Source of the DNA: a candidate division WOR-3 bacterium | Lineage (GTDB): Bacteria > Hydrothermota > Tepidihabitantia > B3-TA06 | Assembly (NCBI GenBank): GCA_965649265.1 | Contig: CBFGKC010000006.1 | Location: 96,001 to 160,000, forward strand | DNA length: 64,000 nt | Reading direction: 5' to 3' | In this document: piece after piece, positions 29,497 to 44,296 of the stretch | How the letters are laid out: each line of letters opens with the position of its first letter | Numbering within the stretch: position 1 is the first letter of the stretch | Made by a program: the position numbers and the translations under genes | Notes under the pieces: generated by a model | The model's input: only the letters and a program-made list of their open reading frames with translations | Told to the model about the DNA's origin: nothing | The model's database searches: none

Positions 29497-30561
29497 TCAT
29501 CCGTAGAAGTACTGGTAAGAGAGCGAGCGTATTACGTCTCCGGAACGATCCTTGCTTATCTCCTCCAGAATATGTCCCTTGTCATCGTAGCGTAGATCGA
29601 CGAATCCGTAAGGCTTGTTGCGCTCGTCGTGCCAGATTATCTTTATAGGCTCCTTTCCTTCTTTATCGTACTTGTACTCCCATGATTTCGTACGCCTTTT
29701 GTTGCTGTCGTGCCATTCCTTTTTAAGAAGGCGGCCTTTGCGGTCGTACTGGAATTCAATCGTATTTAAAATCTCGTTCTGGGAGTTACGGGTAATTTCC
29801 TTGGTAATCTTTCCGTCCTTGCTTACTTCCCTGTCGAAAACCTGCAGGGTGACACCCGAACGATCTATGTGTATTTCCTGAACCAGGACCCCGTCCTTGT
29901 CGTAAATCATCTGTTGTGTGCGGACAGGCTGTCCTGCGGTGTCGAAGAAAACCATTCTCGTGAGACGATCCCCGTCGTACTCGTAGCGGCATATCTCGTT
30001 TACGCGATCGTTGAGAACCGTGCGGCGTTCGACCAGTCGGTTGCCCGATCCCTTTGGAGGAGGGGGAGGGGGTGCTGAAAAAGAAGCCTGGCCTTGAGGC
30101 TGGGGTTGTGGAGAAGCGGTTCTTGTGTCCTTTGCTTGCGTTTTGGCCTGCGGCTGCAGCTGAGGCTCCGGAGCGCGCTGTTTGGCGGCAATGGCGGGCG
30201 AAAGCGTCGGCATGGCATCCCTGCGCGGATGTTCGTCTCCCTGTTTGAGCGATAAGCGAAGTCTGGATTCCAGATGTGTTTCAAGATGATCTATGAGCTT
30301 TACGGCCTTTTCGAGGTCGTTGGACTCGATAACGGCCAGCGTAATTTCGTTAAGTATCTCGACCTGGAATTCGTGAGCGGCAATCTTGATAAGCTCGGGA
30401 GAAATGGATTCGCGCGCGGCCGCAAGATGCACTTCCACCCTCTGGCTGAGCTTGCGGTTTTCCTCAAGAAGATCCGCAATGCGTTTGGCCAGTTCTTCCT
30501 GTTCTTTTGCCAGGTCCTGGTACTTTAAATAATCTTTTTCGGGATCGTACTTAGAAGCCAT
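29497..30561 (-). CDS. hypothetical protein: coiled coil + Pro/Gln linker + YD/RHS-like repeats
   Basis: YEYDGDRL, YDKDG, YDRKGRL, YDDKGHI; no signal peptide; start ATG 30561 or GTG 30573. Confidence 0.75.
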   Translation of the reverse strand: MASKYDPEKDYLKYQDLAKEQEELAKRIADLLEENRKLSQRVEVHLAAARESISPELIKIAAHEFQVEILNEITLAVIESNDLEKAVKLIDHLETHLESRLRLSLKQGDEHPRRDAMPTLSPAIAAKQRAPEPQLQPQAKTQAKDTRTASPQPQPQGQASFSAPPPPPPKGSGNRLVERRTVLNDRVNEICRYEYDGDRLTRMVFFDTAGQPVRTQQMIYDKDGVLVQEIHIDRSGVTLQVFDREVSKDGKITKEITRNSQNEILNTIEFQYDRKGRLLKKEWHDSNKRRTKSWEYKYDKEGKEPIKIIWHDERNKPYGFVDLRYDDKGHILEEISKDRSGDVIRSLSYQYFYG

Positions 30562-30592
30562 GGATTGTCTCACTGGTTGTTGTCATACGCTA

Positions 30593-30705: not shown

Positions 30706-32043
30706 TCATTTCACAATTATAACCTTGCAGATTCGGCAAGGATCTACATCGGGGACTATGAAATACACGCCTGCCTCGTGTCCTTTACCCCATTTGAAAG
30801 TGCCTTGTGTTTGAGATGGTTTTATTTTGTCCACCTTGCGGCCGGATGCGTCGTATACATCGGCTTGAAAACCGCTGGGATGTCCCGAGTATTGCAGCAC
30901 TATCTCCTTACCGATGGGGGAGAGGAGTTGCCAGGCTGTTATTTGCTCGACAGCAGGTTTTTCCGCGACTCCTACGTTGCCAAGGGAATCGGTCTTAATA
31001 AGACAGATTTTGTAAATACCGCTTTCCGAGGTCATAACCTCTCCGGTAATAATAAAACCCTTATCCTGGGTTTCCTGGACACTGAATCCTCTGTTCCATG
31101 AGTTTTCGCCGAATTGTTTTGTCCACTGAAAGTTTCCATTTTTATCTAACTTAAGGAGGAGCAGAAAAGTTCCGTGATCGGTCCTGAAAATTCCGGTTGC
31201 GGCTAAACCGCCGTCATATGTCTCATCACAATCATAGGCCTGCAGAGAATCTCTTGCAAAAGACCAGACTGTATCCCCCAGTTCATCGAGCTTGAGTATC
31301 CATAAAGCCTGCCCGCCGTTTTTCCAGCCTGCAACATAGTACCCACCTTCGGTCTGGTGTATGGAGTAGCCCTTTTCTCCTTCCGTGGACAAGCCATGGC
31401 TTTTTGCCCAAAGGAGATTGCCCTTATCATCGGTCTTGACAACGCCCAGATGAAAGGCTGAATCTCTGCCTGTTACAATAAAACCGTTATCTTCAGTTTT
31501 TGCGATACACAAACCTTCCAGCCCATACTGGTGCGTCCAGACCGTATCGCCGTTCTTGTCGAACTTCATGATAGTCCAGGGGGTGCCTGTTGCAGCATAT
31601 CCGTCTGCCGTTTCGATTACACATTCGCCATAAGAAAAACCACTATTATTGCCAATCGCCTGAGTCCATAAAGTGTCGCCATAAGGGTTCGTTTTTATCA
31701 ACCACAAATGAACCGTCTGCCAGCCACCCGCACAACTACCCACGAGCGTATATCCTTCGTCAGTTGTTTGGATGACAGAAAGGCCTTTACCGCCGTAAGC
31801 TTTTGAATCCTTGTATGTTTTAGACCATTGGATTTCGCCCAAAGGATCGGTTTTCAGGAGGCAGGTTCCGGCTACTATATATCCTCCATCCTTTGTTTGC
31901 TTGACGGAGTATCCTGAATTGAAATCAGCGTCACCGTAAGTTTTCATCCAGCCGGCAACACTCGACAGAGGGAATATCAGCAACCCAAGAACCGTCAAGA
32001 CTATGTTTGTCAGAGGATTAAACACTAACCTCGATTTTTCCAT
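30706..32043 (-). CDS. secreted beta-propeller repeat protein with T9SS-type CTD (paralog of 21626)
   Basis: GWMKTYG, QTKDGGYI, LIKTDSLG; YDASGRKV...GVYF...KVIIVK. Confidence 0.85.
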   Translation of the reverse strand: MEKSRLVFNPLTNIVLTVLGLLIFPLSSVAGWMKTYGDADFNSGYSVKQTKDGGYIVAGTCLLKTDPLGEIQWSKTYKDSKAYGGKGLSVIQTTDEGYTLVGSCAGGWQTVHLWLIKTNPYGDTLWTQAIGNNSGFSYGECVIETADGYAATGTPWTIMKFDKNGDTVWTHQYGLEGLCIAKTEDNGFIVTGRDSAFHLGVVKTDDKGNLLWAKSHGLSTEGEKGYSIHQTEGGYYVAGWKNGGQALWILKLDELGDTVWSFARDSLQAYDCDETYDGGLAATGIFRTDHGTFLLLLKLDKNGNFQWTKQFGENSWNRGFSVQETQDKGFIITGEVMTSESGIYKICLIKTDSLGNVGVAEKPAVEQITAWQLLSPIGKEIVLQYSGHPSGFQADVYDASGRKVDKIKPSQTQGTFKWGKGHEAGVYFIVPDVDPCRICKVIIVK

Positions 32044-32131
32044 AAAACCTCCTCAAGGTTTTTTTGGCTTACGCCTCCTCATTAACGCCCAACAATTAAA
32101 TTCTGGTCAAAAAACCTGCTTATCAAGCTCT

Positions 32132-33433
32132 CTAGCTCGCGTAAGGGAACAGGAACTTTAGCGATGCGCCGAAGCGGTAGAACTTTTCGGTATACAAATC
32201 TTCCTCCAGCCCGAACTTCTTGGACCAGGTCGCGTACTCGAAGGAACTGTTGAGGACAACATACGAAGAGATAGGTATGCCTATCCCTGCGGTTACACCT
32301 TTGAGATACTTTGGTGTGTGCTGGCCTGAGTCGGCCTGCGGGATCGCGTCAAAGTAGAAACCTCCGCGTACTATCACAGGCGATACGAATTCGGCACCGA
32401 AGCGGAACGTGGAACCGTCGTTCACGCCGAGCCTTGAGCCTAAGGCCTCGACGGCAGTGAAGAAGCGAGTCTGGAATTCACCTGAAAGATTGAGGAAAGG
32501 CAAAATCTTCGACCGCAAACCGACGGTGAAGACGCCGGGCAACATGTAGGCTGTTGAGTCATCTACCTGGTGTTTTATCTGAATTCCATTAGTGTCCAAT
32601 ACAAGCGTTGAATCAAACCAAGTAATCTCCGTTCCGGAAAGGCTTTCCTCGCCCCATCTCCAGCCCCAGGCTATAGGTGATCGATATGAGAAGCTTATAC
32701 CCAACTGGGGAAAGGGTTCCGCAAACGCGCCTACAGTGAAAAAATTTCCTGTCGAGGAGAAGTTACCTTTGTATCTTATTCGTGTTTCATCGTATATACC
32801 GGAGGTGTCCCCGTCTTCAATCTCAAGATCATCGTAAACGCTTACTTCGTAATAGCTGCTTTTGAGCTTCTCTAGTGCGCTGAAGCTGAAGGCCAGACCA
32901 ATGGAGTAATTGTCCAGTATGCTCATTGCGATCGCCGGGGTTATTACCCTTAAACCGCCGGTTGCGGTATCGGTCATCTTATAACTTCCGTTTTCGAATT
33001 CCCAGTTAATCTCCCTGTTGACGGCATTATCAATATGTAGGTGATAGCCGAAAGCAGGATAGAGCACAGCGTATTCCGCGATCTGGATGGGCAAAGCTAA
33101 AGAGACGTGTGTGAACTGGGGGATGGTGTTATATTTTGTGTAGTATTGCTCTTCTTGTATCTCTTCCTGGCCGAAACCCCAGTAAAGCCTTCCGCCGATC
33201 TCCATTTCAAGATAATCAGCGTCCAGCAAAAGAGCAGGATTGAAAAAGATGGCGTTCGAACCCTGAGCGCTGACCGATCCGGTATTGCCCATGCCGCAGG
33301 AACGGACATCCACGACGGTGGGATTAATTGCGTCAACCATAAATGCATAAACGGTTGAATTTACGAAAAATAGCGGTAACAATACGACCAAAGTCTTAAA
33401 GGTCGCTTTTTTTTCAAATCCTGACATGCACAT
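32132..33433 (-). CDS. outer-membrane beta-barrel (FadL/PorV-like)
   Basis: VRSCGMGNT...NAIFFNPALL motif; alternating beta-strands; RBS GGAGG. Confidence 0.75.
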   Translation of the reverse strand: MCMSGFEKKATFKTLVVLLPLFFVNSTVYAFMVDAINPTVVDVRSCGMGNTGSVSAQGSNAIFFNPALLLDADYLEMEIGGRLYWGFGQEEIQEEQYYTKYNTIPQFTHVSLALPIQIAEYAVLYPAFGYHLHIDNAVNREINWEFENGSYKMTDTATGGLRVITPAIAMSILDNYSIGLAFSFSALEKLKSSYYEVSVYDDLEIEDGDTSGIYDETRIRYKGNFSSTGNFFTVGAFAEPFPQLGISFSYRSPIAWGWRWGEESLSGTEITWFDSTLVLDTNGIQIKHQVDDSTAYMLPGVFTVGLRSKILPFLNLSGEFQTRFFTAVEALGSRLGVNDGSTFRFGAEFVSPVIVRGGFYFDAIPQADSGQHTPKYLKGVTAGIGIPISSYVVLNSSFEYATWSKKFGLEEDLYTEKFYRFGASLKFLFPYAS

Positions 33434-33692
33434 ACCTACCTCCAGGCTTGCCTTTTTTGTATCTATAGTGTATACCGAAACATGTGATTTGTCAAGCCCT
33501 TCTGTGAGCTTCTGGTCATCTAAGTCAAGCCAAAAAAACATCTGTAACCGTCAGCCCTCTCAGTCATATCCCGGCATTGGTCTTACAGACTGAGTTAATT
33601 GGAATAATATCCAAATCACAAGCAGAGAAAGATGTGTTACTGAGTCCTCCTCAGAAACCTCCTCAGAGCTACCCCTCAGTCTTCCTTACATC

Positions 33693-33843
33693 CCCGGCGC
33701 TCCTCATTGGATCAGTAATAATGAAACAGCAGAAGCCGGAGGGTTCTGCCAATGCGCCTCCGGCGCTCCTCATTGGAGAGTAGAAGTAAAATGGCGGAAG
33801 CGGAGCTTGCGCCCAGCGCCTTCGAGGCGCTCGCTCTCCTCAG
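33693..33843 (+). repeat. dispersed multi-hairpin repeat, copy 3 (with internal partial duplication)
   Basis: TTCTGCCAATGCGCCTCCGGCGCTCCTCATTGGAGAGTAGA...GCGCCTTCGAGGCGCTCG. Confidence 0.85.
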
Positions 33844-34012
33844 AAATACCCTGACACATGTCTGACACACTGAGCTAATCTTAGCGGTATGTTTCTATTT
33901 ATGAGCTATGAGGGAGAAGGGGGGGCAGGAGCCCTCCTCAGAGACCTCTCGGTGTCGATTTTACATAATTTTCTGAGCGGAGTATCTTTCTATTCACGAC
34001 CAATGAGGGATG

Positions 34013-34070
34013 GTGTGTTACGGGGGGGGGACGGGTGTTACGGGTGGGTGTTACGGGTGGCGTTACGGGG
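34013..34070 (-). repeat. CCCGTAACAC array at the radical SAM gene stop
   Basis: GTGTTACGGG copies on the plus strand; the first minus-strand copy supplies CCG TAA of the rSAM gene. Confidence 0.8.
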
Positions 34071-35085
34071 CAGAGAGAATCTGGGCGACGAATGGTTCGG
34101 TACCACCGCATTCATTTGCGGCGGCCCGGCACGATGCCCGGCATGTCTCGATATCCTTGCACCCTCTGCACATCTCCGGTATATCCTCAATGAACTCCTT
34201 CCTTTCGGCGGAATCCATCAGCTCCCAGAAACTTTTTTCCCTGATATTCCCGAGAACGAGCGGGGTGTGGTTGCACGGACGCAGATTGCCTATGGAATCC
34301 ACCACCGGGTAGCACTCCTCGGTTCCCGCCGAGCAGAAACCGAAGCCGAGATGCGGGTAGTTCTTAATATCCACGAGGCAGCAGGGGATAGGTATCGATA
34401 CGCTTATGGGGAACCTCTTTTCTACCGCGAACCGCTCGGCTGTGTCGAGCATGAAGAGCACATCCTGGGGGGAGGGGGAGAGTTCGTCGAGATTCTCGAG
34501 TCCCCTTCCGCCGGGATTGAAGCGGTTGAGCATCACGCCGTGCGTACCGAGGCTCCTTGCGAACTCCAGGGTTTCCCAGAGCCTTGCGAGGTTGATCTTT
34601 GTGACGATCAGGGCGACTACAATCTTCGCCTTTGTCGAAAGCACGGCCTCTATCCCTCGAACTGATTTCTCGAAGCTTCCACTGCATCCCTGCAGGTATT
34701 CGTGCTCGTCTGGCCTGTCCGATAGAAGCTGGATCTCGAAAAGAGAGATTCCAGCCCTCACAAGCGTCTTTGCGAGTTTCTTGTCGAGCGCCTGGCCGTT
34801 CGTGATGATGTTGAGCTGAGCGCCCGAGAGTGCGGCCTGAAGCGAGATGTCCACGAGATCGGGTCTCAGAGTCGGTTCTCCGCCGCTTATCGTGAAGAGT
34901 GACGGCTTCGTCTCTTTTAAGAGCTTTGCCAGCATCTCGCGGGTTTCCTTTGGGTTCAAGTCCTCATGTACAGTTTCCGGATGCTTATGCCAGATGTTGT
35001 AGCAGAAGCGGCATTTGAGATTACATCTTTGGGTTACTTCGAAGATGAGGATTTTCTGGCGGCGGTCCCTTAACGAATCGTTCAT
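34063..35085 (-). CDS. radical SAM/SPASM-domain protein (putative protein maturase)
   Basis: CNLKCRFC, SGGEPTLR, ITNG; SPASM CSAG...GNLRPC...GNI...CRGC-x5-C-x3-C; ATG 1 nt after the stop of the last array gene. Confidence 0.93.
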   Translation of the reverse strand: MNDSLRDRRQKILIFEVTQRCNLKCRFCYNIWHKHPETVHEDLNPKETREMLAKLLKETKPSLFTISGGEPTLRPDLVDISLQAALSGAQLNIITNGQALDKKLAKTLVRAGISLFEIQLLSDRPDEHEYLQGCSGSFEKSVRGIEAVLSTKAKIVVALIVTKINLARLWETLEFARSLGTHGVMLNRFNPGGRGLENLDELSPSPQDVLFMLDTAERFAVEKRFPISVSIPIPCCLVDIKNYPHLGFGFCSAGTEECYPVVDSIGNLRPCNHTPLVLGNIREKSFWELMDSAERKEFIEDIPEMCRGCKDIETCRASCRAAANECGGTEPFVAQILSAP

Positions 35086-35086
35086 G

Positions 35087-35662
35087 CTAATTATCTTCCT
35101 TTTTCTCAGTTCCTGACGTATCCGGTTTGCTGACTATTAGTTTTGCCAGGTGAGAGGTTTCAGAATTAAGCGAGGATATTTTCATGAAGACCCTGACGGT
35201 TTCAGGCGGAAGGCCTCGAACATCCAGCCTCGCTTCCAGAAGTTCCGCGGAGCTGTCGAATTTCCCGTCGACCGGGTCGAGCGATATAATATAAGGTTCA
35301 GCATCCGGTCGGCTAACCGCGGCCGTAGCACTGTATATTATGTCACCAGGTATTTCTGTTCTTCCAAGAACCTTTATAGTTACGGAATCCGCACCCCTGG
35401 TCGGGTTGGGATAGATCAAAAGCGAGTCGACAATCTCATCTGCAGGCGGAGAAAAATGAACATAGTAGCAAGTAATCGCCGGTTCATAGTGACGGTGTGT
35501 CAGACATCCTATGAGCGAAAGTAAGCCTCCTAGAAGAACCAGTTTAAAATGTCTGGTTGTTCTTGAAAATCGGTTCTTGCTCTCTAAAACCGAAAGAAGA
35601 TGGAATACTAAACCTCCCGCTCGGCTCAACAACCCTGAGAGCCTATTACGCAACTTGATCAC
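35087..35662 (-). CDS. CY-motif array protein 12 (predicted lipoprotein)
   Basis: Leader ..SRAGGLVFHLLS..; LIG-C; AITCY; YPNPTRGADSV; VDGKFD. Confidence 0.88.
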   Translation of the reverse strand: MIKLRNRLSGLLSRAGGLVFHLLSVLESKNRFSRTTRHFKLVLLGGLLSLIGCLTHRHYEPAITCYYVHFSPPADEIVDSLLIYPNPTRGADSVTIKVLGRTEIPGDIIYSATAAVSRPDAEPYIISLDPVDGKFDSSAELLEARLDVRGLPPETVRVFMKISSLNSETSHLAKLIVSKPDTSGTEKKEDN

Positions 35663-35691
35663 TGGTCAATATACGGCTGATAGGGATGGTG

Positions 35692-36252
35692 TCAATCCTT
35701 TTCTTCCGTAGAGTCAGGGTCCGTCACGACAAGCATTAGTTGTTGCGTATACATGCCTGCCTGGGAGGTGTAGAAGGTCAGGTCCACCCATGTTGTTTCG
35801 GAGACAAGCCCTCCGATATAGAACCTCCCCTGAACGGCCTCAAGCGTGTCCGAAAAATCTCCGTCAACCGCATCGAGAGGCGTAAGAAGCGTGTCTGATG
35901 CCAGTTTTATCGTCGCGCCGGTAATGATGTTGCCTTCTATTCCCGGATCGTAAACCTTGGCCGTCGCCTTCACCGTTACCGTATCCGCGCCTTTTGTAGG
36001 ATTCGGCGTAATAGCAGCCTCGGTGACTACCACGGGGTCAATTATGGCCATGTCGTAGCAGGTTGCTATGGGTGTCTCCGGCTGTGCCCTGAGCCAGCCT
36101 GCAACAGTCAGAACGAGACCTAAAACGAAGAGCTTGGTCCACCTCGCCGTCTTTTTAATAGTTCCCTCCTCCTCCCAGCTTGAAAGAACCGGAAGGAGTT
36201 TTGCTCCTATCCTCGTTATGAATGATGAAAGCGCGTTTCGAGTCTTAATCAT
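35692..36252 (-). CDS. CY-motif array protein 11 (SPase I type)
   Basis: ARWTKL; LRA|QPETPIATCY; TPNPTKGADTV; VDGDFSDT. Confidence 0.9.
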   Translation of the reverse strand: MIKTRNALSSFITRIGAKLLPVLSSWEEEGTIKKTARWTKLFVLGLVLTVAGWLRAQPETPIATCYDMAIIDPVVVTEAAITPNPTKGADTVTVKATAKVYDPGIEGNIITGATIKLASDTLLTPLDAVDGDFSDTLEAVQGRFYIGGLVSETTWVDLTFYTSQAGMYTQQLMLVVTDPDSTEEKD

Positions 36253-36281
36253 GTTTTACTGTACCTCACTTTTCCGGACTG

Positions 36282-36839
36282 TCAATCTTTTTCTGTCGAA
36301 TCGGGTTCAGAAATCACAAGCTGCAGCCCTTCAACATTTATGCCTGCCTGCGGGGTGTAGAATGTGATGTAAACCCGGGTGGTTTCGGGTCCAAGCCCGG
36401 TGACGCACAGACGGCCTTCAACTGTCTCGAGCGTGTCCGAAAACTTGCCGTCGACCGCACGGAGAGGGACAATAACCGTATCGCCGCCAATTCTTGCATC
36501 CGCTCCGGAGATTATATTGCCTTCAAGTTTCGAATCGTAGACCCTTGCGGTCGCTCTCACCGTAACCGAGTCGGCGCCATTTGTGGGGTTAGGCGTAATA
36601 GCAGCCTCAGTGATTATTACCGGTTCAATGACGACCGGATCATAACAGGTCGCATACCCCCTGGTCTCTTGGGCCGAGAGCCAGCCTAGTAAGCCCAGGA
36701 TGAAACCCAGAATGTAGATTTTTGCAAATCTCGCGAATCCCTTAAGAACCCCTTCCTCCTCCCACCTTGAGAGAAGCGGGAAGAGTTTTGCTCCAACATT
36801 GCTTACAAACGCCGCGAGCGAGCTGCGAGCTTTGGCCAT
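36282..36839 (-). CDS. CY-motif array protein 10 (SPase I type)
   Basis: LSA|QETRGYATCY; TPNPTNGADSV; VDGKFSDT; RBS AAGGAGG. Confidence 0.9.
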   Translation of the reverse strand: MAKARSSLAAFVSNVGAKLFPLLSRWEEEGVLKGFARFAKIYILGFILGLLGWLSAQETRGYATCYDPVVIEPVIITEAAITPNPTNGADSVTVRATARVYDSKLEGNIISGADARIGGDTVIVPLRAVDGKFSDTLETVEGRLCVTGLGPETTRVYITFYTPQAGINVEGLQLVISEPDSTEKD

Positions 36840-36903
36840 AAAATTCCTCCTTGACTGCGACTACTCCTGTTATACAGTTGCAGGTGCAATAAATTCCCTT
36901 AAC

Positions 36904-37443
36904 CTATTCGGTTATCTCGATATCTGAGCTGTCTTCGATTACCTTGTTCTTGCTTGTAGATATTCTGACATGGACTTTTGCGTTTGCGGTATCGATACCC
37001 CTGATGCTTAACTTCGCCGAGATTTCCTCGTATGAACCGTCAAAAGCACTATCCGCAGCCAGCATCTCCACCGTGTCGGAATTTGCACCTTTCCCGGTAA
37101 TGAAACACTGTGCCGATTTTACATAATTGTCCTTGGAGCCTGGGATTATATTGGCTCTGGCTTTGACCATAACCGAGTCGGCTCCAGCCGTAGGATCAGG
37201 CAAAACCTCGATATTATGAATGGGGGGAGGTACAGGCTCGTAGCACGTGACCGGGCAGCAGGCGGTCGAGCCGGCCGCTCCGGAAAGACCTAATCCTGAA
37301 ACGAGTGCACTCAGGAATGAAAGCTTCATCCACCTTGCAAGCTTGGGTAGTACCCTGCGTTCCTCGCATCTTGAGTAGAAGTCAAAAAGCGCAAAACCGG
37401 CTTTCCTGAGAATCTCGAAAACAATGTGTCTTGCCTGAGCCAT
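36904..37443 (-). CDS. CY-motif array protein 9
   Basis: Start MAQARH; CEERRVLPKLARWMKL; STACCPVTCY; PDPTAGADSV; ADSAFDG. Confidence 0.9.
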   Translation of the reverse strand: MAQARHIVFEILRKAGFALFDFYSRCEERRVLPKLARWMKLSFLSALVSGLGLSGAAGSTACCPVTCYEPVPPPIHNIEVLPDPTAGADSVMVKARANIIPGSKDNYVKSAQCFITGKGANSDTVEMLAADSAFDGSYEEISAKLSIRGIDTANAKVHVRISTSKNKVIEDSSDIEITE

Positions 37444-37450
37444 GATACTG

Positions 37451-37990
37451 CTATTCTGATTCCGTGATGTACAAATCCACTGTCGTGTAATCTCGCTCCC
37501 CTTTATTGGAGGTGGCCTCAATGTTTACACTGCAGGTATCGCCTGCGGCAAGATTGCCTACGTATAATCGAGCTTCTACGTCTTTCATTCCGTATGGATC
37601 GGTTTTCGTGACAATCATCGTTATGGTGTCGTCATTAAGAACACATATCACCTTATCCACATAATCTTCTTCTATGCTTACTCCATTGGGGACATTTGCG
37701 CTCGCTTCAACGGTTACTGAATCTGAGCCTGACGTCGGATTAGGGGTTATTGAGCAGGTTGCGATTTGAGGTTTCGGGTACTCCATCGGTGCGTAACACG
37801 TTATGCAGTTGAGCATGCTGGCCGCACTCAATGCGGTAATTCCTGTCACGAAGGCTCCGAGGAAGGTCGTTTTTACCCACCTGGAAGCCCTTGGCAGTAT
37901 CCCGCAATCCTCACAGTGGGAGAAGAAGTTGAAGAGTGATGTTCCCATTCTCCTCAAGGTTTCAAAGAAGAGGTAGCGGCTACTGGCCAT
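37451..37990 (-). CDS. CY-motif array protein 8
   Basis: CEDCGILPRASRWVK; MLNCITCY; TPNPTSGSDSV. Confidence 0.9.
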   Translation of the reverse strand: MASSRYLFFETLRRMGTSLFNFFSHCEDCGILPRASRWVKTTFLGAFVTGITALSAASMLNCITCYAPMEYPKPQIATCSITPNPTSGSDSVTVEASANVPNGVSIEEDYVDKVICVLNDDTITMIVTKTDPYGMKDVEARLYVGNLAAGDTCSVNIEATSNKGERDYTTVDLYITESE

Positions 37991-38005
37991 TGTGCCTCCG
38001 GTGAT

Positions 38006-38521
38006 TTATTCAGTTATCTCGAGGTCGATTGTTGTATCCGCTCGCTGGTCTTCATTGTCGTATTCTGTGATTTGTATGGTTACTGTATCGGGCTCGAGGT
38101 CTCCTATATACAACTTCGCGTTCACGGCATATTCATTCGTGTAGTCTCCAGGCTCTATCTTCATGACGGTGGTGTCATTCTCGAGGATACATATCACCTT
38201 TTTCAATTCAATCCCGTTATCGGCAATTGCCTTGGCGGAAACGCTAACAGTGTCGGCCCCTGCCGTAGGATTTGGTGCCACGGAGGCGTTTTCGATTCGA
38301 GGTGATTCAATTGGCAAGTAGCAGCCGGTGGGGATACAGTTGATCATGCTGGCCGCGCTCAACGCGGTAATTCCTGTCACGAAGGCTCCGAGGAAGGTCG
38401 TTTTTACCCACCTGGAAGCCCTTGGCAGTACCCCGCATTCCTCACAGCGAGAGAAGAAGTTAAAGAGTGAGGTGCCTATCCTCCTCAAGGATTCAAAGAA
38501 AAAAAACTTTGTTCTAGCCAT
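38006..38521 (-). CDS. CY-motif array protein 7
   Basis: Start MARTKF with RBS AAAGGAGG; MINCIPTGCY; APNPTAGADTV. Confidence 0.9.
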   Translation of the reverse strand: MARTKFFFFESLRRIGTSLFNFFSRCEECGVLPRASRWVKTTFLGAFVTGITALSAASMINCIPTGCYLPIESPRIENASVAPNPTAGADTVSVSAKAIADNGIELKKVICILENDTTVMKIEPGDYTNEYAVNAKLYIGDLEPDTVTIQITEYDNEDQRADTTIDLEITE

Positions 38522-38543
38522 GGTTCCTCCTTTCACTGTATTA

Positions 38544-38571
38544 AATATAATCAACTTGCTCGGATTGTCAA
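38544..38571 (-). promoter_or_regulatory. internal promoter within the array
   Basis: TTGACA-N16-TATATT on minus strand, same boxes as the array head promoter. Confidence 0.65.
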
Positions 38572-38603
38572 TCCATGAAAATCACCTGAAATCCTGGCAG
38601 GTG

Positions 38604-39131
38604 TTATTTATCAGTAACGCGGAGAACGGTCGAGCCTATGCCCCAGCCTGAGGTTTTTGAATCGACTTTTACAAAGACCTGAGTGCTGTCCGTTTTGATT
38701 TTCTTCACGTATATGCGCCCGATGAGTTCCTCATTATTCTCGTCGAATGCGCCGTCCCTCGCTATCATCCGGATGGTGTCTCCATCGACTATGCACTGGG
38801 CTGAGGCTATTATTTCGAGATCGCTTGCGTTTTCAAGTCTGGCTTTGGCGGTAACGGTCACCGAGTCGGCGCCTTTCGTCGGGTTAGGCTTGACTACTAT
38901 CTCCGAAACCCTGGGATATACGGCCACAGGTTCGTAGCAGGTCACGAGCCCCTGATCCAGCGGAGGTTTTTTGGCGCATGCCGCAATGATGGTCAGCCAC
39001 GCTCCAGCAAGCGCGAGCTTGAGCCAGCGTGATATCCTTGGCAGAGCGCTTCGTTCCTCACACCCGGTCAGAATGGAGAACAGTGCCGAGCCTGTTCTCC
39101 TCAAAAACCTTGACAGTAACTCTCGCTTCAT
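38604..39131 (-). CDS. CY-motif array protein 6 (predicted lipoprotein)
   Basis: IAA-C lipobox; GLVTCY; KPNPTKGADSV; RDGAFDE. Confidence 0.9.
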   Translation of the reverse strand: MKRELLSRFLRRTGSALFSILTGCEERSALPRISRWLKLALAGAWLTIIAACAKKPPLDQGLVTCYEPVAVYPRVSEIVVKPNPTKGADSVTVTAKARLENASDLEIIASAQCIVDGDTIRMIARDGAFDENNEELIGRIYVKKIKTDSTQVFVKVDSKTSGWGIGSTVLRVTDK

Positions 39132-39700
39132 AACGAGTCCTTTTCAGTGATAAATAGCGGTAATGAAACCAGTGCTTCTTCACCCTTGGAAGTGGCCGCG
39201 TGCACGTAGACGAAGGTGGTCCCGGGTTTAAGACCCGCGACGCTGATGCGTGCCTCAATCATCTCGACGGTATCCGAGAAGCGGCCGTCCACAGGGTACA
39301 TCCGGATTTTCCTTGACGTATCAATGGCCATTACGAGCCAAGCATCCGACACGTAATTGTTCTCAAGGCCAGGTTCCAGCACCCTTGCGGTGCCCGTTAT
39401 CTTGACAGTGTGCACGCCCCTTGTCGGGTTCGGGCTTGCCTGAACTACTGAGATTTCGGGATCCATCCTTCTCATCATGTAACATGTGTGGACAGGACCG
39501 TCGCCGTCTCCTCCTGGTCCGGGTCTTGCCTTTTTCCCGCACGAGGCTATCAGGGCGACAACGAGCCCGAGTAGCGAAACCTTCAAAAAGCGCGCGGTCT
39601 TTGAAAATATTGGAGTATCCTGGCATCTCGATAGCGCATTAAACACCAGATTACCTGCATTTCTGAGAACTGCAATCAAGCTCTTTCTCATCTTTGCCAT
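39128..39700 (-). CDS. CY-motif array protein 5 (predicted lipoprotein)
   Basis: IAS-C lipobox; PVHTCY; SPNPTRG; VDGRFSDT. Confidence 0.9.
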   Translation of the reverse strand: MAKMRKSLIAVLRNAGNLVFNALSRCQDTPIFSKTARFLKVSLLGLVVALIASCGKKARPGPGGDGDGPVHTCYMMRRMDPEISVVQASPNPTRGVHTVKITGTARVLEPGLENNYVSDAWLVMAIDTSRKIRMYPVDGRFSDTVEMIEARISVAGLKPGTTFVYVHAATSKGEEALVSLPLFITEKDSL

Positions 39701-39719
39701 TCTGCCTCTCCTATCTCGT

Positions 39720-40262
39720 TTAATCTGGTTCAGTAATCACCAGTTCTAAAGATTCAATTTCAATTTGACCGGAAGAATTTTCTACCTCTAAGTATATCCA
39801 TGTCGTTTCCGGCTCAAGGTCTCCAACGTAAAGTCGGCCGACTATTCTCTCCGAAGCGGCGTCGAATTTCCCGTCAATCGCCCGCATGGGGTAATATATT
39901 GTATCTCCATCCATTCTCATGCGGGCTGAGCTTATCGTGCTTTCGCCGCTGTAGTGATCGCTAATCTTTGCCGTGGCCTTGACGGTTACCGAATCGGCGC
40001 CCCTTGTAGGGTTAGGCCTTACGGAAAGTTTGGATAGTTCTATGAGGGGAGGGGGGGCGGGCTTGTAGCACATTATGACGTCTTCCTTTGCTTCGAGCGA
40101 GAGAGCGCTCACGAGTGCCACGAAAAATCCGAGGAATGTGAGCTTCAACCATCTTGCCGCCCCGGGGAGGATGCGGCGTTCCTCGAATCCGGAAAACGTT
40201 CCGAAAAGCCTTCCGCCAATCCTTGCAAAAAAGTCTGCCAGGCGTTTTCTGAGTTCAGGCAT
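39720..40262 (-). CDS. CY-motif array protein 4 (SPase I type)
   Basis: LEA|KEDVIMCY; RPNPTRGADSV; IDGKFD. Confidence 0.9.
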   Translation of the reverse strand: MPELRKRLADFFARIGGRLFGTFSGFEERRILPGAARWLKLTFLGFFVALVSALSLEAKEDVIMCYKPAPPPLIELSKLSVRPNPTRGADSVTVKATAKISDHYSGESTISSARMRMDGDTIYYPMRAIDGKFDAASERIVGRLYVGDLEPETTWIYLEVENSSGQIEIESLELVITEPD

Positions 40263-40263
40263 A

Positions 40264-40833
40264 TCAATCCTCCTTATTCTCGTTGCTGTCCGCTTCCGGT
40301 GCGGTGATGATTAATTGCCTCCAGGTGCTTTCCGCGTTGCCTGAGTTTGTCCTCACCACTATGTAAATCCAGGTGGTCTCCGGCTTGTGATCCCCGACGT
40401 AGAGACGGCCTTCGACTGTTTCAAGGGTATCGCCGAACTTACCGTCAACCGCTTTCATCGGATATAAAAGGGTATCTCCGGTAAGCTGCATAATTGCTTC
40501 GGAAACAGCGGTGTCACCTGAGCAATAATATGCAGATTCCAATTTTGCGGTTGCCTTGACTGTAACGGTGTCTTTTCCTGCAGTGGGGTTCGGTGTTGCC
40601 GAGACATCGAAGATACTTAAGTGAGGTTCCTCAATAGGCACGTAGCACATGATGATATCGTCGTCCGCCTTGAGCGCTGGCGCGCCCAGCAGGGTTACCA
40701 GCAATCCCAGAACCGAAAGCTTTAGCCATCTTGCCGGTCTGCGTAGGATACCGCGTTCCTCCAATCCGGACAGTATCCCGAATAAGGAGCCGCCTATCCG
40801 TGAAGAGATGCGGGCCAGTAAGCCTTTTGTCAT
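40264..40833 (-). CDS. CY-motif array protein 3 (SPase I type)
   Basis: LKA|DDDIIMCY; TPNPTAGKDTV; VDGKFGDT. Confidence 0.9.
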   Translation of the reverse strand: MTKGLLARISSRIGGSLFGILSGLEERGILRRPARWLKLSVLGLLVTLLGAPALKADDDIIMCYVPIEEPHLSIFDVSATPNPTAGKDTVTVKATAKLESAYYCSGDTAVSEAIMQLTGDTLLYPMKAVDGKFGDTLETVEGRLYVGDHKPETTWIYIVVRTNSGNAESTWRQLIITAPEADSNENKED

Positions 40834-41409
40834 CTACTCCTCCCTGGCAGCGCTCGAATCAGCTGCGAGCGAATCAATCCTTGTTACGGTGTAGGACTGC
40901 CAAAGAATCTCTTCATCTTCTCTGGAACTCGTCACGTCTATAAAGAACCAGTGGGTGCCGGTATCCAGGTCGCCTGTGTAAAACATGGCCTCAAGAACCT
41001 CAAGAGTGTCGTTAAGCTTGCCGTCCACGGCCTTCATGGGAATCCTCAGGGTGTCACGCTGCCTGGAAAGCCAGGCGTTTCGGATGTAATTGTTCTCAAG
41101 GGTCGGGTCCAGAACTTTTGCAGTTACCTTTACTTTTACCGAGTCCGCTCCTCGAGTCGGATTTGGTGTGATGGACACATCCGAAATCTTTACCTCCGGC
41201 ATCCTCATGGCTACGTAACAGGTCTTAATTGTTTCTACCTCGGCGGAAAGTGCTCCGATGGCTGCGGTAAGAAATCCAAGCAGTGAGAGCTTTAACCAGC
41301 GCGAAGCGCTGGGCACAATCCCGCGCTCTTCGAATCGCGACAGGAGTGAAAAGAGACCTCCTCCCAGCACTTCAAGAATCCTTACGACGAACCCTTTCGT
41401 TCTCGCCAC
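40834..41409 (-). CDS. CY-motif array protein 2 (SPase I type)
   Basis: GTG start at 41409 (MARTKG); LSA|EVETIKTCY; TPNPTRGADSV; VDGKLNDT. Confidence 0.9.
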   Translation of the reverse strand: MARTKGFVVRILEVLGGGLFSLLSRFEERGIVPSASRWLKLSLLGFLTAAIGALSAEVETIKTCYVAMRMPEVKISDVSITPNPTRGADSVKVKVTAKVLDPTLENNYIRNAWLSRQRDTLRIPMKAVDGKLNDTLEVLEAMFYTGDLDTGTHWFFIDVTSSREDEEILWQSYTVTRIDSLAADSSAAREE

Positions 41410-41410
41410 G

Positions 41411-41983
41411 TCACTCCACCTTTGTCGAATCAGTCCTGATAGAATCAGGCTCCGAGACTTCAAAATAAAACCAGCTCGCTTCCAGTGCATCCTGGGATGT
41501 CTGGACGAGCATTGAGATCGAGTACTGGCCCGGTTCAAGATTTCCAACGTAAACCGTACCCTCGAGCACCTCGAGCGTGTCGTCCATCTTGCCGTCAAGT
41601 GCTTTGACCTTGAACCTCGTCGTATCACCGTCCCAGGAGAGCCAGGCGTCCTTTATGAAGTTATCCTTGATATTCGAGTACATCACCTTGGCCTGGGCCT
41701 TCACTTTCACCGAATCCGCTCCCTTCGTGGTATCAGGGGTTACGGACTTCTCTGTTATGATGACGTCGGGAATCCTCGCGACGATGTAGCAGGTGACTTC
41801 CGGATCCCTGGCTTGAAGTGAGAGTGTCGCGACTAGCGAGGCTATGATTCCCAGGGTCGAGATCTTTATCCATCTCGCGGCACGCGGCATGACGCCTTTT
41901 TCTTCTATCATTGTCAGAAAATGGAAAATTGCATCTCCCAGTTTCCCTAACAGCCTGGATAAGAGGTTGCGTGTCTTGGCCAT
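41411..41983 (-). CDS. CY-motif array protein 1 (SPase I type)
   Basis: Start MAKTRN with RBS AAAGGAG; LQA|RDPEVTCY; TPDTTKGADSV; LDGKMDDT. Confidence 0.9.
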   Translation of the reverse strand: MAKTRNLLSRLLGKLGDAIFHFLTMIEEKGVMPRAARWIKISTLGIIASLVATLSLQARDPEVTCYIVARIPDVIITEKSVTPDTTKGADSVKVKAQAKVMYSNIKDNFIKDAWLSWDGDTTRFKVKALDGKMDDTLEVLEGTVYVGNLEPGQYSISMLVQTSQDALEASWFYFEVSEPDSIRTDSTKVE

Positions 41984-42033
41984 CGTCGCTCCTTTAATTC
42001 TCAATACAAGAAAACATCTCAAATATTCCCCAC

Positions 42034-42061
42034 AATATAAGCCCCAAAAGACAGGTGTCAA
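42034..42061 (-). promoter_or_regulatory. promoter of the CY-array/rSAM operon
   Basis: TTGACA-N16-TATATT on minus strand. Confidence 0.65.
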
Positions 42062-42085
42062 GCATATCTTACGGGCGGATACTCA

Positions 42086-42114
42086 TTGACAAAGATGCAG
42101 CATTTCTCTATAAT
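42086..42114 (+). promoter_or_regulatory. consensus sigma70 promoter (divergent)
   Basis: TTGACA-N17-TATAAT. Confidence 0.75.
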
Positions 42115-42198
42115 AAAACATGGGAAAGAACAGGGAGTTTCCAATGAAAAAAAAAAGGTTTGTGATAGTTCCGAGTCATTTTACAGGGAGAGATTGAG

Positions 42199-43521
42199 AT
42201 GCATCCATTTCTGGTTTTCTGTTGTTGTTTGATTTCATCTTTGACTTGGAATAGACATTATGATTTTCGGTTTAGTGACCACTGTAGCGCGCTTGTGCCG
42301 GTAGAGGACGGTTACGTGATTACGGGTAACACTATGCGGTATCTATTCGTGCAGAAGGTCGATACTCTGGGAAATCAAGTCGGTTACAAAGAGTGGTATA
42401 AGGCCGAAGGTTATGACATAGAGAGAATGTCTGATGGTTATATTATTCTTGCGTACAAAGACGAATCTCCCAGGCACGGGATTTGGTTGGTAAGAACAGA
42501 TAGCGATTTTGACACACTTTGGAGTAGAAGCTATGGATATAATAATGGAATTATGGCAAAATCTCACTCATTTGATTTAACAGATGACAGTGGTTTAGTG
42601 ATGGTCGGTGAGTGCGGCACGGGTCTTATTGTCTTTAAAACCGATAGTCTTGGTGATAGCTCCTGGGTAAAAAAATATTTTCAGTCTGTCTCGATGCGCG
42701 CTGGGAATTTTATTGAAGAAACATCTGATCAAGGTTTTATTGTTACGGGAGTTTGTGAGGAACGTTTTTTTGCACTGAAATTGGATGAGAATGGGGATTC
42801 CTTATGGTGTAAGAAATATTTTGAGGAAAAAACAGGTGAAGGTCTTTGTATAAGAGAAACCTCCGACAAAGGCTTTATAGTATTGGCTAGGATAAGGTAT
42901 GGTAGTTCGGATTCCTTGCTTCTCATCAAGACGGATTCTTTTGGAAACGCTTTGTGGGTGAGAAAATTCAATTCGATGTCTCATTGGACTAGAACATGTT
43001 ATATTGAGGTTCTGGATGATGGTTATGTTATGATTTCAGGGTCACAAGAAGGTCCATTAGTCAGGAAATTTGACGAGTCTGGGAATGTCCTTTGGACAAA
43101 GACCTACAATCGTAATTTCGGTTATTTTTCCGGATTTGAAGGCACATGTATTCATTACACATCGGATAAAGGTTTTATTATTGGCACCGCTTTGGATATA
43201 TCTCCATACGGATCAGACCTCTGGCTGGTGAAAACCGACAGCCTAGGAAACACGGTTCCTCTTGAATCCGTGATAGAGCCAACGGAGACTGCCGTTAGCG
43301 AAGTTCATCTGAGTGTTTTGAATTCAGCTGTTGCATATTCCTTACCTGCTGGCGAGCGTTGTTTGTTGAAAATCTATGATGTTAGTGGAGTATTGAAAAA
43401 AGGAGAAATTGTTTGTGGCCGCGGAGAGATGCGACTAAAAGAATTCCCTGTAGGGGTTTATTTCGCTGAGTTACAGTTCATGCGAAGTGCTGAAATCAAA
43501 AAGGTATTAGTTTTTCCCTAG
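42199..43521 (+). CDS. secreted beta-propeller repeat protein with T9SS-like CTD
   Basis: LVKTDSLG / ETSDKGFI repeats; IYDVSG...GVYF...KKVLVF; AT-rich. Confidence 0.82.
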   Translation: MHPFLVFCCCLISSLTWNRHYDFRFSDHCSALVPVEDGYVITGNTMRYLFVQKVDTLGNQVGYKEWYKAEGYDIERMSDGYIILAYKDESPRHGIWLVRTDSDFDTLWSRSYGYNNGIMAKSHSFDLTDDSGLVMVGECGTGLIVFKTDSLGDSSWVKKYFQSVSMRAGNFIEETSDQGFIVTGVCEERFFALKLDENGDSLWCKKYFEEKTGEGLCIRETSDKGFIVLARIRYGSSDSLLLIKTDSFGNALWVRKFNSMSHWTRTCYIEVLDDGYVMISGSQEGPLVRKFDESGNVLWTKTYNRNFGYFSGFEGTCIHYTSDKGFIIGTALDISPYGSDLWLVKTDSLGNTVPLESVIEPTETAVSEVHLSVLNSAVAYSLPAGERCLLKIYDVSGVLKKGEIVCGRGEMRLKEFPVGVYFAELQFMRSAEIKKVLVFP

Positions 43522-43571
43522 TCGAAAATAGTTTTCGTTGACTAACTCTTTTGTTCAAGTACAATCCCCGC

Positions 43572-43991
43572 GTGAAGCAGCTCTTATCGGACTGGCGGGT
43601 GCTTTCGGCGATCGCGATACTCGGATGGGGGACCTGGGGCATACTCTCAAAGATTGCCCTGAAACAGGTTGACTGGCGGGTCATGATGCTGATTACGTCC
43701 GTAGCCGCCCTTCCTCTGGCTTTCATACTCGGGATTCCGAATTTCGACTGGAAGTTTAACCGCTACATCCTTCTCGCTTTTTTTGCAGGAATCGGAGCCG
43801 AGGTCGCGACGCTCTCCTTCAACCGCGCGATTCAAAAGGGCGGACCCGCGAACGTCGTGGTCCCACTCACCTCACAGTACGTGCTCGTCATAGTGCTTTT
43901 TTCGACCATTTTCCTAAAAGAGCCTATAACGTGGCAGAGAATCGTCGGCATCGTTGCCGCGCTCATAGCAATTGTGATGCTTTCGCTGTGA
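43572..43991 (+). CDS. EamA/DMT-family small membrane transporter
   Basis: WGTWGILSK, GPANVVVPL, FLKEPIT; TTGACT-N16-TACAAT-N6-GTG leaderless start. Confidence 0.88.
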   Translation: MKQLLSDWRVLSAIAILGWGTWGILSKIALKQVDWRVMMLITSVAALPLAFILGIPNFDWKFNRYILLAFFAGIGAEVATLSFNRAIQKGGPANVVVPLTSQYVLVIVLFSTIFLKEPITWQRIVGIVAALIAIVMLSL

Positions 43992-44296
43992 TATTTTTCC
44001 TTATCGAATGAGTGCAAATCGAACCACCTCTTTCGTACTCTCCTTCTTACCCCCGGGATAGTATTGAGGGCGTCATTGCGTTGTTCACAGGATTACTGAT
44101 ATGGTTTTGCATGCAGAATTGCAAAGAATACTATATTTAAGAAAACACCCGATTTTCAGGCGAAGTTAAAGATACAAATCGAAAATCATTACGGCGGCGA
44201 CAATCATTGCGAATCAACGCTATAATCCCTAATGCACAATTGATGAATTTCCTGTGACTTGATACGGTGGCCTTCGGCAAAAGCCGAAATCTACTG

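Follow-up and report, generated by a model that had tools for sequence, protein, structure and literature searches.

Signal peptides of the twin-arginine translocation (Tat) pathway that have long n-regions are bound by maturation chaperones, and their proteins mature in the cytoplasm before export. On the Sec side, the ESPR is described as a conserved 25-residue extension placed before a normal signal peptide, which slows export by Sec; EspP, whose targeting it keeps post-translational, shifts to the co-translational route when the ESPR is deleted, and the extension is reported to be common on proteins that are glycosylated in the cytoplasm before export (PMC8151025). The bufferins (BufA) are described as small proteins that are Cys-modified in the cytoplasm, exported by Sec and trimmed by signal peptidase (PMC11626156). 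For proteins modified by radical S-adenosylmethionine (SAM) enzymes, a 28-residue leader of QhpC is reported to be needed for interaction with QhpD (PMC7876137), and a 47-residue N terminus shared by CrpA and CrpB to aid CrpC processing (PMC13692751). Here we describe an array of 12 tandem paralogs at 35087-41983, minus strand, in the window (the whole analyzed stretch of 64,000 nucleotides, contig C6:96001-160000 of a 2.74-Mb, 96% complete WOR-3 genome, G000), each of which begins with a conserved segment of ∼40 residues in front of a hydrophobic stretch and which are followed by the gene for a radical SAM/SPASM enzyme. Our tentative reading is that the segment acts as an ESPR-like n-region that couples cytoplasmic modification to Sec export.

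In all 12 proteins, the ∼40-residue segment leads into an uncharged stretch, which a short, variable linker connects to an invariant Cys-Tyr; an immunoglobulin (Ig)-like domain that opens with PNPTxGADSVTVKA follows. The alignment gives the segment the consensus MAxxRxxLxxxLxRxGxxLFxxLSxxEExGxLPRxARWxKLxxLG. Residues M1, G16, R37, K40, C65 and Y66 are invariant in all copies, as are P83, T86, G88, V92 and D130 in the domain, and L44 and G45 of the hydrophobic (h) region are nearly so. In 73 unique family members, the mean length ahead of the h-region is 39.3 residues (range, 32 to 40) and the mean net charge there is +5.3 (+2 to +8), and the n-region is thus not of the few-residue type of ordinary Sec signals; secreted proteins encoded nearby have ordinary short n-regions. 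The information per position (relative entropy) is 2.28 bits in residues 1 to 40, 1.83 bits in both the h-region and the Ig-like domain, and 1.01 bits in the linker. Paralogs are 39% identical in the extension, 33% in the domain and 11% in the linker, and eight reciprocal-best ortholog pairs between this genome and G100 are 71% identical in the leader versus 73% in the domain. An initial annotation of the locus had called the segment basic and amphipathic. Its consensus and basic charge recur in 12 of 12 copies, but its amphipathicity is modest: the maximal 18-residue helical moment exceeds the mean of shuffled sequences in all 12, yet falls in the top 5% of shuffles in only four. The same annotation set the segment against the shortness of Sec n-regions, a premise that overlooks ESPR extensions and long Tat n-regions, both of them known exceptions and both a better fit.

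A 78-position profile of the N-terminal part scored 80 to 107 bits (E of 1e-22 to 1e-30) on each of the 12 copies and matched nothing else in the genome at E ≤ 1 (12 matches among 47 candidates scored). Thus, the resemblance is not due to chance, and this search with the leader, which the annotation had suggested as a check, returned the 12 paralogs only, all of them with Cys-Tyr. The whole-protein profile recovered the same 12 genes and no others. A search of 5.8 billion proteins put the family at 43 members (E ≤ 1e-3); 35 of the 36 that were retrieved open with the segment and have Cys-Tyr, and the remaining one, P0044 (125 aa), begins inside the h-region. The 78-residue profile, searched without a word index or a length limit, gave 42 matches at E ≤ 1e-3 among 1.84 billion representatives; no fused or re-used form of the leader was present among them. 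Specifically, 39 are proteins of 150 to 201 aa matched at the N terminus, and the other three are a 127-aa fragment (P0172), a 44-aa leader-only relic (P0194) and a marginal 369-aa repeat protein (E of 8e-4). Cys-Tyr was found in eight of 11 inspected matches, P0187 having T-Y-Y instead. Leaders lacking Cys-Tyr or the enzyme, occurrences that would speak against the proposed link between them, were looked for and amounted to the relic and this one T-Y-Y variant. In P0193, a 25-residue acidic (Glu/Gly-rich) insert right after LSGWEE and before RVARWLK splits the segment into two modules, which shows that the leader can apparently tolerate splitting at this point. Pfam gave no family at E ≤ 0.01 for the four of 12 paralogs scanned, no solved structure matched the precursor (best E of 0.44), and in the ESM Atlas precursor scores did not exceed 0.85, with weak Big_7/Big_13 hints (0.78) that serve as leads only. 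The extension is real and specific to this family.

The gene directly after the array encodes a 340-residue protein in which Pfam recognizes Radical_SAM (74.5 bits, residues 16 to 176) and SPASM (30.6 bits). Its CxxxCxxC cysteines (C21, C25 and C28) and the seven of its C-terminal domain (C236, C251, C271, C306, C309, C315 and C319), the combination that defines SPASM maturases, are invariant in 22 homologs. Among the 25 shown of 76 named NCBIfam radical SAM families, the enzyme fell far below every cut-off, the best scores being for AhbD (111.8 bits; cut-off, 500) and GeoRSP (101.6 bits; cut-off, 400). The nearest solved structures are PqqE (6c8v; 85 bits, the best), SkfB and anSME (4k36/4k37; 52 bits over the SPASM part).

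When 272 genomes of the phylum were searched with both the family and the enzyme, full-length family matches occurred in only seven, all belonging to family f1, with 12 copies here, nine in G100, 17 in G102, at least four in G101 (over two contigs) and one full-length copy each in G094, G097 and G098. In other genomes of the phylum only the Ig-like part matched, within frames of up to 2742 codons. Orthologs of the enzyme (67 to 89% identity, 522 to 691 bits) are encoded in exactly the six other paralog-bearing f1 genomes, directly downstream of the last paralog, and two genomes of family f26 encode a homolog with 38% identity (243 bits) beside a distant paralog; the next-best radical SAM protein anywhere else in the 272 genomes scored no more than 127.5 bits. 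The enzyme gene directly follows a family member in nine of nine enzyme-bearing genomes, and full-length paralogs are missing from the four f1 genomes in which no enzyme was detected at E ≤ 1e-30. There is one enzyme per 1 to 17 precursors. In the neighborhoods compared, no conserved partner gene was found besides the enzyme, and no protease or transporter gene is conserved beside the precursor–enzyme pair. This adjacency, together with the restriction of the N-terminal profile to this family, upholds the tie between segment and enzyme that the annotation had drawn. The substrate–enzyme pairing is well supported by these patterns of co-occurrence, and the family proteins are very likely substrates of the adjacent enzyme, which lacks a RiPP (ribosomally synthesized and posttranslationally modified peptide) recognition element (RRE) and would act on the invariant Cys-Tyr. 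A sulfatase-type formylglycine motif was considered and rejected, as the motif here is C-Y-x-P. In G093:C7 (L026:1480-1635), in a region syntenic with window positions ∼42000-44000 and beside EamA and Roadblock genes, a 51-codon leader-only open reading frame (ORF) (MARTRYFFFEALRRMGNSLFSFFSRCEDRGVLA...) then runs out of frame; G093 has neither an ortholog of the enzyme nor a full paralog, and the ORF looks like a remnant of a lost cluster.

The first ATG and the last stop of the 12 genes, each of 171 to 191 codons, are the exact bounds of the span 35087-41983. Ten of the 12 have a GGAG/AGGA Shine-Dalgarno-like box 5 to 10 nt before the start, and gaps within the array are only −4 to 82 nt. Such boxes and the tight packing indicate that the N-terminal segment is translated. 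Longer ORFs listed mechanically for paralogs 1, 2, 7 and 9 were rejected as over-extensions of the true starts. The features are as follows, each gene starting at the higher coordinate.

42034..42061, minus strand: promoter-like TTGACA-16-TATATT upstream of paralog 1, a consensus match only.
41411..41983, minus strand: paralog 1, 190 aa; extension residues 1-40 (41864-41983), h-region 41-56 ending LSLQA, Cys-Tyr 65-66; AGGAG 6 nt before the ATG.
40834..41409, minus strand: paralog 2, 191 aa; GTG start one base past the paralog 1 stop; extension 41290-41409, Cys-Tyr 64-65.
40264..40833, minus strand: paralog 3, 189 aa; extension of ∼38 aa (40720-40833), Cys-Tyr 63-64.
39720..40262, minus strand: paralog 4, 180 aa, the top family-profile match; extension 40143-40262, Cys-Tyr 65-66.
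39128..39700, minus strand: paralog 5, 190 aa; extension 39581-39700, putative lipobox IAS/C at the h-region end, Cys-Tyr 73-74.
38604..39131, minus strand: paralog 6, 175 aa; extension of ∼38 aa (39018-39131), putative lipobox IAA/C, Cys-Tyr 65-66.
38006..38521, minus strand: paralog 7, 171 aa, ATG at 38521; extension 38402-38521, ALSAAS site, Cys-Tyr 67-68.
37451..37990, minus strand: paralog 8, 179 aa; extension 37871-37990, ALSAAS site, Cys-Tyr 65-66.
36904..37443, minus strand: paralog 9, 179 aa, ATG at 37443, without a clear Shine-Dalgarno box; extension 37324-37443, Cys-Tyr 67-68.
36282..36839, minus strand: paralog 10, 185 aa; extension 36720-36839, WLSA/Q site, Cys-Tyr 65-66.
35692..36252, minus strand: paralog 11, 186 aa; extension 36133-36252, WLRA/Q site, Cys-Tyr 65-66.
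35087..35662, minus strand: paralog 12, 191 aa, GTG start; extension 35543-35662, putative lipobox LIG/C, Cys-Tyr 65-66; final stop of the array at 35087.
34063..35085, minus strand: radical SAM/SPASM enzyme, 340 aa, starting one base past the paralog 12 stop; CxxxCxxC at C21/C25/C28 plus seven conserved C-terminal Cys, no N-terminal RRE.

Two more TTGACA-16-TATATT sites lie within the array on the minus strand, at 38544-38571 and 35668-35695, before paralogs 7 and 12; they match at 11 of 12 positions. As they resemble the site before paralog 1, the array may contain internal promoters.

Cleavage features were assigned by loose pattern rules over the 73 unique family sequences. The uncharged stretch spans 14 to 16 residues in most of them and is then followed by charged residues (mean, 17.6; range, 11 to 26). 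By these rules, 56 members have an L-x-A/A-x-A-like site and 16 have a lipobox pattern, canonical in 12 (IASC, IAAC, ISAC or LIGC, then K or R); 72 of the 73 have one or the other, the pattern of a Sec-type cleavable signal. The features of a lipoprotein signal are present in the 12 canonical members and, in the window, in three of the 12 copies (paralogs 5, 6 and 12), and the genome has two LspA genes. Cys-Tyr lies 24 to 33 residues downstream of residues 1 to 40 and ∼8 to 10 residues past the h-region. Its cysteine was considered as a lipobox Cys and rejected, since it follows charged residues 8 to 10 past the h-region and is preceded by T rather than G, A or S; the separate canonical lipoboxes of some copies further counter this assignment. 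On balance, the hydrophobic stretch is best taken as a predicted cleavable Sec or lipoprotein signal, and because it looks cleavable, the 40 residues would leave with the signal peptide. Two topological claims of the initial annotation thereby gained support as predictions: that the segment stays cytoplasmic, from a net charge of about +5 preceding a 14- to 16-residue uncharged stretch, and that it is removed with the signal peptide, from the 56 L-x-A/A-x-A-like sites, the 16 loose lipoboxes and the two LspA genes.

The enzyme belongs to a clade with 558 database homologs at E ≤ 1e-20, most of them 41 to 44% identical. We retrieved 79 homolog loci (within L054-L132; enzyme gene at ∼4001 in most), whose record titles name Planctomycetota, Chloroflexota, Armatimonadota, Myxococcota, Pseudomonadota, Kiritimatiellia and Cyanobacteriota, labels that may err for metagenome-assembled genomes. 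In the 2.5 kb upstream of the enzyme gene on the same strand, C-Y-x-P occurs 100 times, in 61 of the 79 loci, versus 0, 1 and 1 occurrences in three controls (upstream on the opposite strand and downstream on both strands), and T precedes the Cys in 81 of the 100 sites. Partner proteins in these phyla contain one to several T-C-Y-x-P motifs, the first often right after an SRRxF-type signal or a hairpin of the form transmembrane (TM) helix-RGPRWKRRL-TM helix. By our own pattern classes, 29 sites in 23 loci follow an SRRxF-type signal and lipobox-like Cys (Chloroflexota), seven sites in six loci follow the TM-RGPRWKRRL-TM hairpin (Planctomycetota), and 67 further sites are internal, after soluble helical hairpins that end RPTEMRxATCY or HVWRSNxPITCY. 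The internal motifs follow 55-residue hairpin cassettes, YPFDxxGK...GLL[ST]xxEAxLL...RPTEMRxATCYxP or ...HVWRSNxPITCYEP. The WOR-3 leader is absent from these T-C-Y-x-P partner proteins. Homology of residues 1 to 40 to the elements upstream of TCY was considered and rejected, as hhalign comparison with two of the classes matched only the h-region and Cys-Tyr (64% and 44% probability), and no curated family in Pfam or NCBIfam matched the scanned substrates or enzymes of these phyla. Because homologous enzymes are paired with leaderless T-C-Y-x-P partners, what the clade recognizes is most likely the T-C-Y-x-P site itself, perhaps along with the helix immediately before it, and the 40-residue segment would be a lineage-specific addition.

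Four relatives from f26 have a leader that is ∼10 residues shorter (e.g., MAKIRQNVLSGIGKLFLRAAKRGLMPKR) and aligns with that of f1. Their motifs RRGLIP, RRGFLP, KRGLMP and RKGVLP, two of the four with RR, align to f1 E-[ER]-R-G-x-L-P. The twin-arginine consensus is S/T-R-R-x-F-L-K, which the R-R-G-F-L of f26 resembles, and TatC (PF00902) is present in the f26 genome G052. At the aligned place the f1 consensus reads E-E-R-G-x-L-P ... R-W-x-K, with no twin arginine, and TatC was found in none of five f1 genomes (G000, G100, G102, G094 and G097; 90 to 96% complete), the control being positive in 11 of 14 genomes. The hallmarks of a Tat signal are thus absent from f1 and partly present in f26, and Tat export of the f1 proteins was rejected on both counts; with neither twin arginine nor TatC, these proteins would be exported via Sec or another route. 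In a quick tree, the WOR-3 enzymes fall in a 96%-supported group with enzymes of Chloroflexota and Armatimonadota, whose neighbors have SRRxF-type signals. Together, these alignments and gene contents suggest that the ancestor of the extension was probably a Tat-type n-region, which grew longer and shed its twin arginine in a TatC-less lineage.

Radical SAM enzymes depend on SAM, a reductant and Fe-S clusters and hence are cytoplasmic. Since this chemistry is cytoplasmic and Cys-Tyr lies beyond the signal, modification would precede translocation. Our best reading, which we hold tentatively and at slightly under even confidence, is that the extension is an n-region of the ESPR-like type, probably derived from a Tat signal, which links modification in the cytoplasm to export by Sec and is lost when the signal peptide is cleaved. 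It would form the cytoplasmic front of a long two-part signal peptide, composed of n1 (MAKxR), h1 (a helix of weak amphipathicity that includes G16 and LF), n2 (EExGxLP plus RxARWxK), h2 (the 14- to 16-residue h-region) and c (L-x-A or lipobox). The carriers would be small Ig-like exported proteins and lipoproteins, on which the adjacent radical SAM/SPASM enzyme would act at Cys-Tyr before export. By keeping export post-translational or slow, the extension would buy time for the radical SAM step, and it may help to hold the precursor near the enzyme until Cys-Tyr is modified. Sec export would then follow, with signal peptidase I (LspA in the lipobox copies) removing extension and h-region together. 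Where Tat exists, a Tat signal would permit modification before export; the Tat-less f1 lineage would have to use Sec, which can act early.

Several points weigh against this reading. The L-x-A rule is often satisfied by chance and the predicted cleavage rests on loose patterns, and the subgroup ALSAASMLNCITCY, in which 20 to 26 uncharged residues reach Cys-Tyr, could carry an uncleaved anchor. The tree is quick, with long branches and an unsure root, the putative Tat origin rests on a short aligned motif in four f26 sequences, two with RR, and no curated Tat model matched the scanned Chloroflexota or Armatimonadota substrates. Strong conservation of residues 1 to 30 in Tat-less genomes would argue for a specific binding partner, which could be the radical SAM enzyme. 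Finally, the ESPR itself is described as having little or variable effect on the targeting route (PMC8151025).

Such a binding partner is the substance of the most serious rival, which we consider unlikely but which deserves weight: a true RiPP-type leader, as the initial annotation had suggested, in which the enzyme binds residues 1 to 40 directly without an RRE and needs them for Cys-Tyr modification, signal peptidase being the leader peptidase. The extension is indeed a conserved N-terminal region distinct from the modified part, it is exclusive to the radical SAM–linked family and is the best-conserved long stretch over the 73 members (2.28 versus 1.83 bits), and it is shared by the 1 to 17 precursors that fall to a single enzyme. 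There are also precedents, as far as these are described, in the QhpC leader (PMC7876137) and the CrpA/CrpB N terminus (PMC13692751). However, no RRE or PqqD-like domain was found in the enzyme or in a partner. The radical SAM core starts at residue 13 to 16, with the cluster Cys at 21, 25 and 28, and so leaves no room for an RRE; the PqqD domain PF05402 had no match in the genome at E ≤ 0.01 (96% complete; divergent RREs can escape PF05402), no RRE-like small ORF was found adjoining the pair, and the 520-bp gap at 33542-34062 holds no convincing ORF for a small RRE gene. Moreover, the same enzyme clade (∼40% identity) pairs elsewhere with T-C-Y-x-P after short SRRxF signals or soluble helical hairpins, without this leader, the f26 relatives function with a leader ∼10 residues shorter, and hhalign gives no match for residues 1 to 40. 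The leader is conserved no better than the domain between orthologs (0.71 versus 0.73 identity), with no "conserved leader, variable core" contrast, and the bufferin signal peptide is reported to be dispensable for modification (PMC11626156). Overall, the annotation's interpretation finds partial support. Docking and export control are not mutually exclusive.

An uncleaved signal anchor appears improbable. On this view the mature protein would be a type II membrane protein, in which the stretch remains as a transmembrane helix and the 40 residues serve some function as the cytoplasmic tail. The subgroup whose 20 to 26 uncharged residues reach Cys-Tyr would fit such an anchor, as would a tail conserved like a folded domain and the near-invariance of L44 and G45 in the h-region. 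Yet most h-regions give way to charged residues after 14 to 16 positions, a short length for a membrane span, the 12 of 73 canonical lipoboxes at the h-region end imply cleavage by LspA, which is encoded, and nearly all other members have a small residue at −1. Least probable is an evolutionary leftover, a former Tat n-region that gives positive charge for Sec with no link to the radical SAM step and whose conservation reflects recent paralog descent: f26 RRG[FL][LI]P does align to f1 ERGxLP, f1 lacks TatC and orthologs conserve the segment no better than other parts of the protein. But the extension is still 39% identical among paralogs whose domains and linkers have diverged to 33% and 11% identity, respectively, and G16, E27, R37 and K40 vary little or not at all in three genera; because these specific positions are held, a role in charge alone is unlikely.

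Beyond the ESPR-like reading, it is possible, though we would rate it below even, that the array is one branch of a widespread and undescribed system. In it, a clade of RRE-less radical SAM/SPASM enzymes, Candidatus Stahlbacteria (candidate phylum WOR-3) included, would install a new modification on T-C-Y-x-P in secreted proteins, past an export signal or hairpin cassettes. The enzyme would read the element directly upstream, be it a Tat signal, a two-helix membrane hairpin or a Sec signal with the 40-residue extension; the export signal would serve as the RiPP leader, and the Tat-less Stahlbacteria would have built the extension to keep radical chemistry ahead of Sec. Literature searches, with subscription journals and supplements outside their scope, found no publication on a T-C-Y-x-P system, and the wider system looks undescribed. 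Signal peptides are usually treated as generic address tags, whereas this extension is confined to the very likely substrates of a radical SAM enzyme. If it does time export, it would be a compact natural solution to completing oxygen-sensitive cytoplasmic chemistry before Sec exports the protein unfolded, possibly co-translationally. The findings also point to a T-C-Y-x-P modification system in several mostly uncultured phyla that Pfam and NCBIfam do not cover.

The flanks of the array (30706-33541 and 42199-43521) encode a FadL/BamG/PorV-like outer-membrane barrel and two SBBP-type β-propeller proteins, one with a weak match to a type IX secretion system sorting domain. Barrel and propellers are kept only within genus g1 (G100) and not in the other system-bearing genomes, and the EamA gene is merely syntenic. 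Between the enzyme gene and the FadL/BamG-like porin gene, the ∼520 bp at 33542-34062 lack a convincing ORF, a gap that becomes ∼630 bp if the porin starts at an internal MSGFEKK. A 358-aa protein encoded at 29497-30573 on the minus strand is rich in Pro and Gln in its middle part, looks repetitive in its C-terminal half and has a weak DUF4595 match. Its gene directly follows the enzyme gene in G097 and G098, lies a few genes further on in G000 and G100, and is found in some f1 genomes only; judging from this placement, the protein may be an accessory of the system. In the f26 locus G052:C1 (L042:5810-7932), the genes directly upstream of the paralog–enzyme pair encode another radical SAM protein of 492 aa, unrelated to the first, and a multi-pass membrane protein of 223 aa.

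Among described systems, the ESPR (PF13018) is similar in being a conserved extension before a Sec signal, with an n1-h1-n2-h2-c layout, that is removed with the signal peptide, as predicted here (PMC8151025, as far as it describes these features). Unlike the ESPR, the extension has no Pfam match at E ≤ 0.01 in the four paralogs scanned, is longer (40 versus 25 aa) and more basic, and is carried by proteins of ∼180 aa with an Ig-like domain, which have no β-barrel translocator and are not autotransporters. The ESPR has no known radical SAM link, whereas the window family has one. The bufferins are similar in that a signal peptide replaces the RiPP leader and its protease, as we propose here; they differ, on the published description, in having signals of ordinary length that are dispensable for modification, with no pre-signal extension, and in using a multinuclear nonheme iron-dependent oxidative enzyme with a DUF2063 partner rather than a radical SAM/SPASM enzyme (PMC11626156). 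With QhpC/QhpD and CrpA/CrpC the array shares protein-sized substrates, a conserved N-terminal leader, Cys-centered chemistry and a SPASM enzyme, and QhpC is described as likewise periplasmic (PMC7876137, PMC13692751). The QhpD and CrpC enzymes are, however, described as using an RRE, which the window enzyme does not have, and the QhpC leader as being cut by a dedicated protease, QhpE, with export by an ABC transporter, whereas the leader here precedes a signal peptide. The long n-region and proposed maturation before export recall Tat signals with long n-regions, and related substrates elsewhere have SRRxF-type signals or, in f26, RRG[FL][LI]P together with TatC; unlike Tat signals, the f1 copies lack a twin arginine, and none of the five f1 genomes searched yielded TatC. 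The anSMEs recognize C/S-x-P/A-x-R. Like anSME, the window enzyme is an RRE-less SPASM radical SAM enzyme that, as proposed here, would modify a Cys in full-length exported proteins before export; unlike anSME, its motif is T-C-Y-x-P, its substrates are not sulfatases and its best solved match is PqqE. The segment falls among known kinds, extended signal peptides and the leaders of radical SAM–modified proteins.

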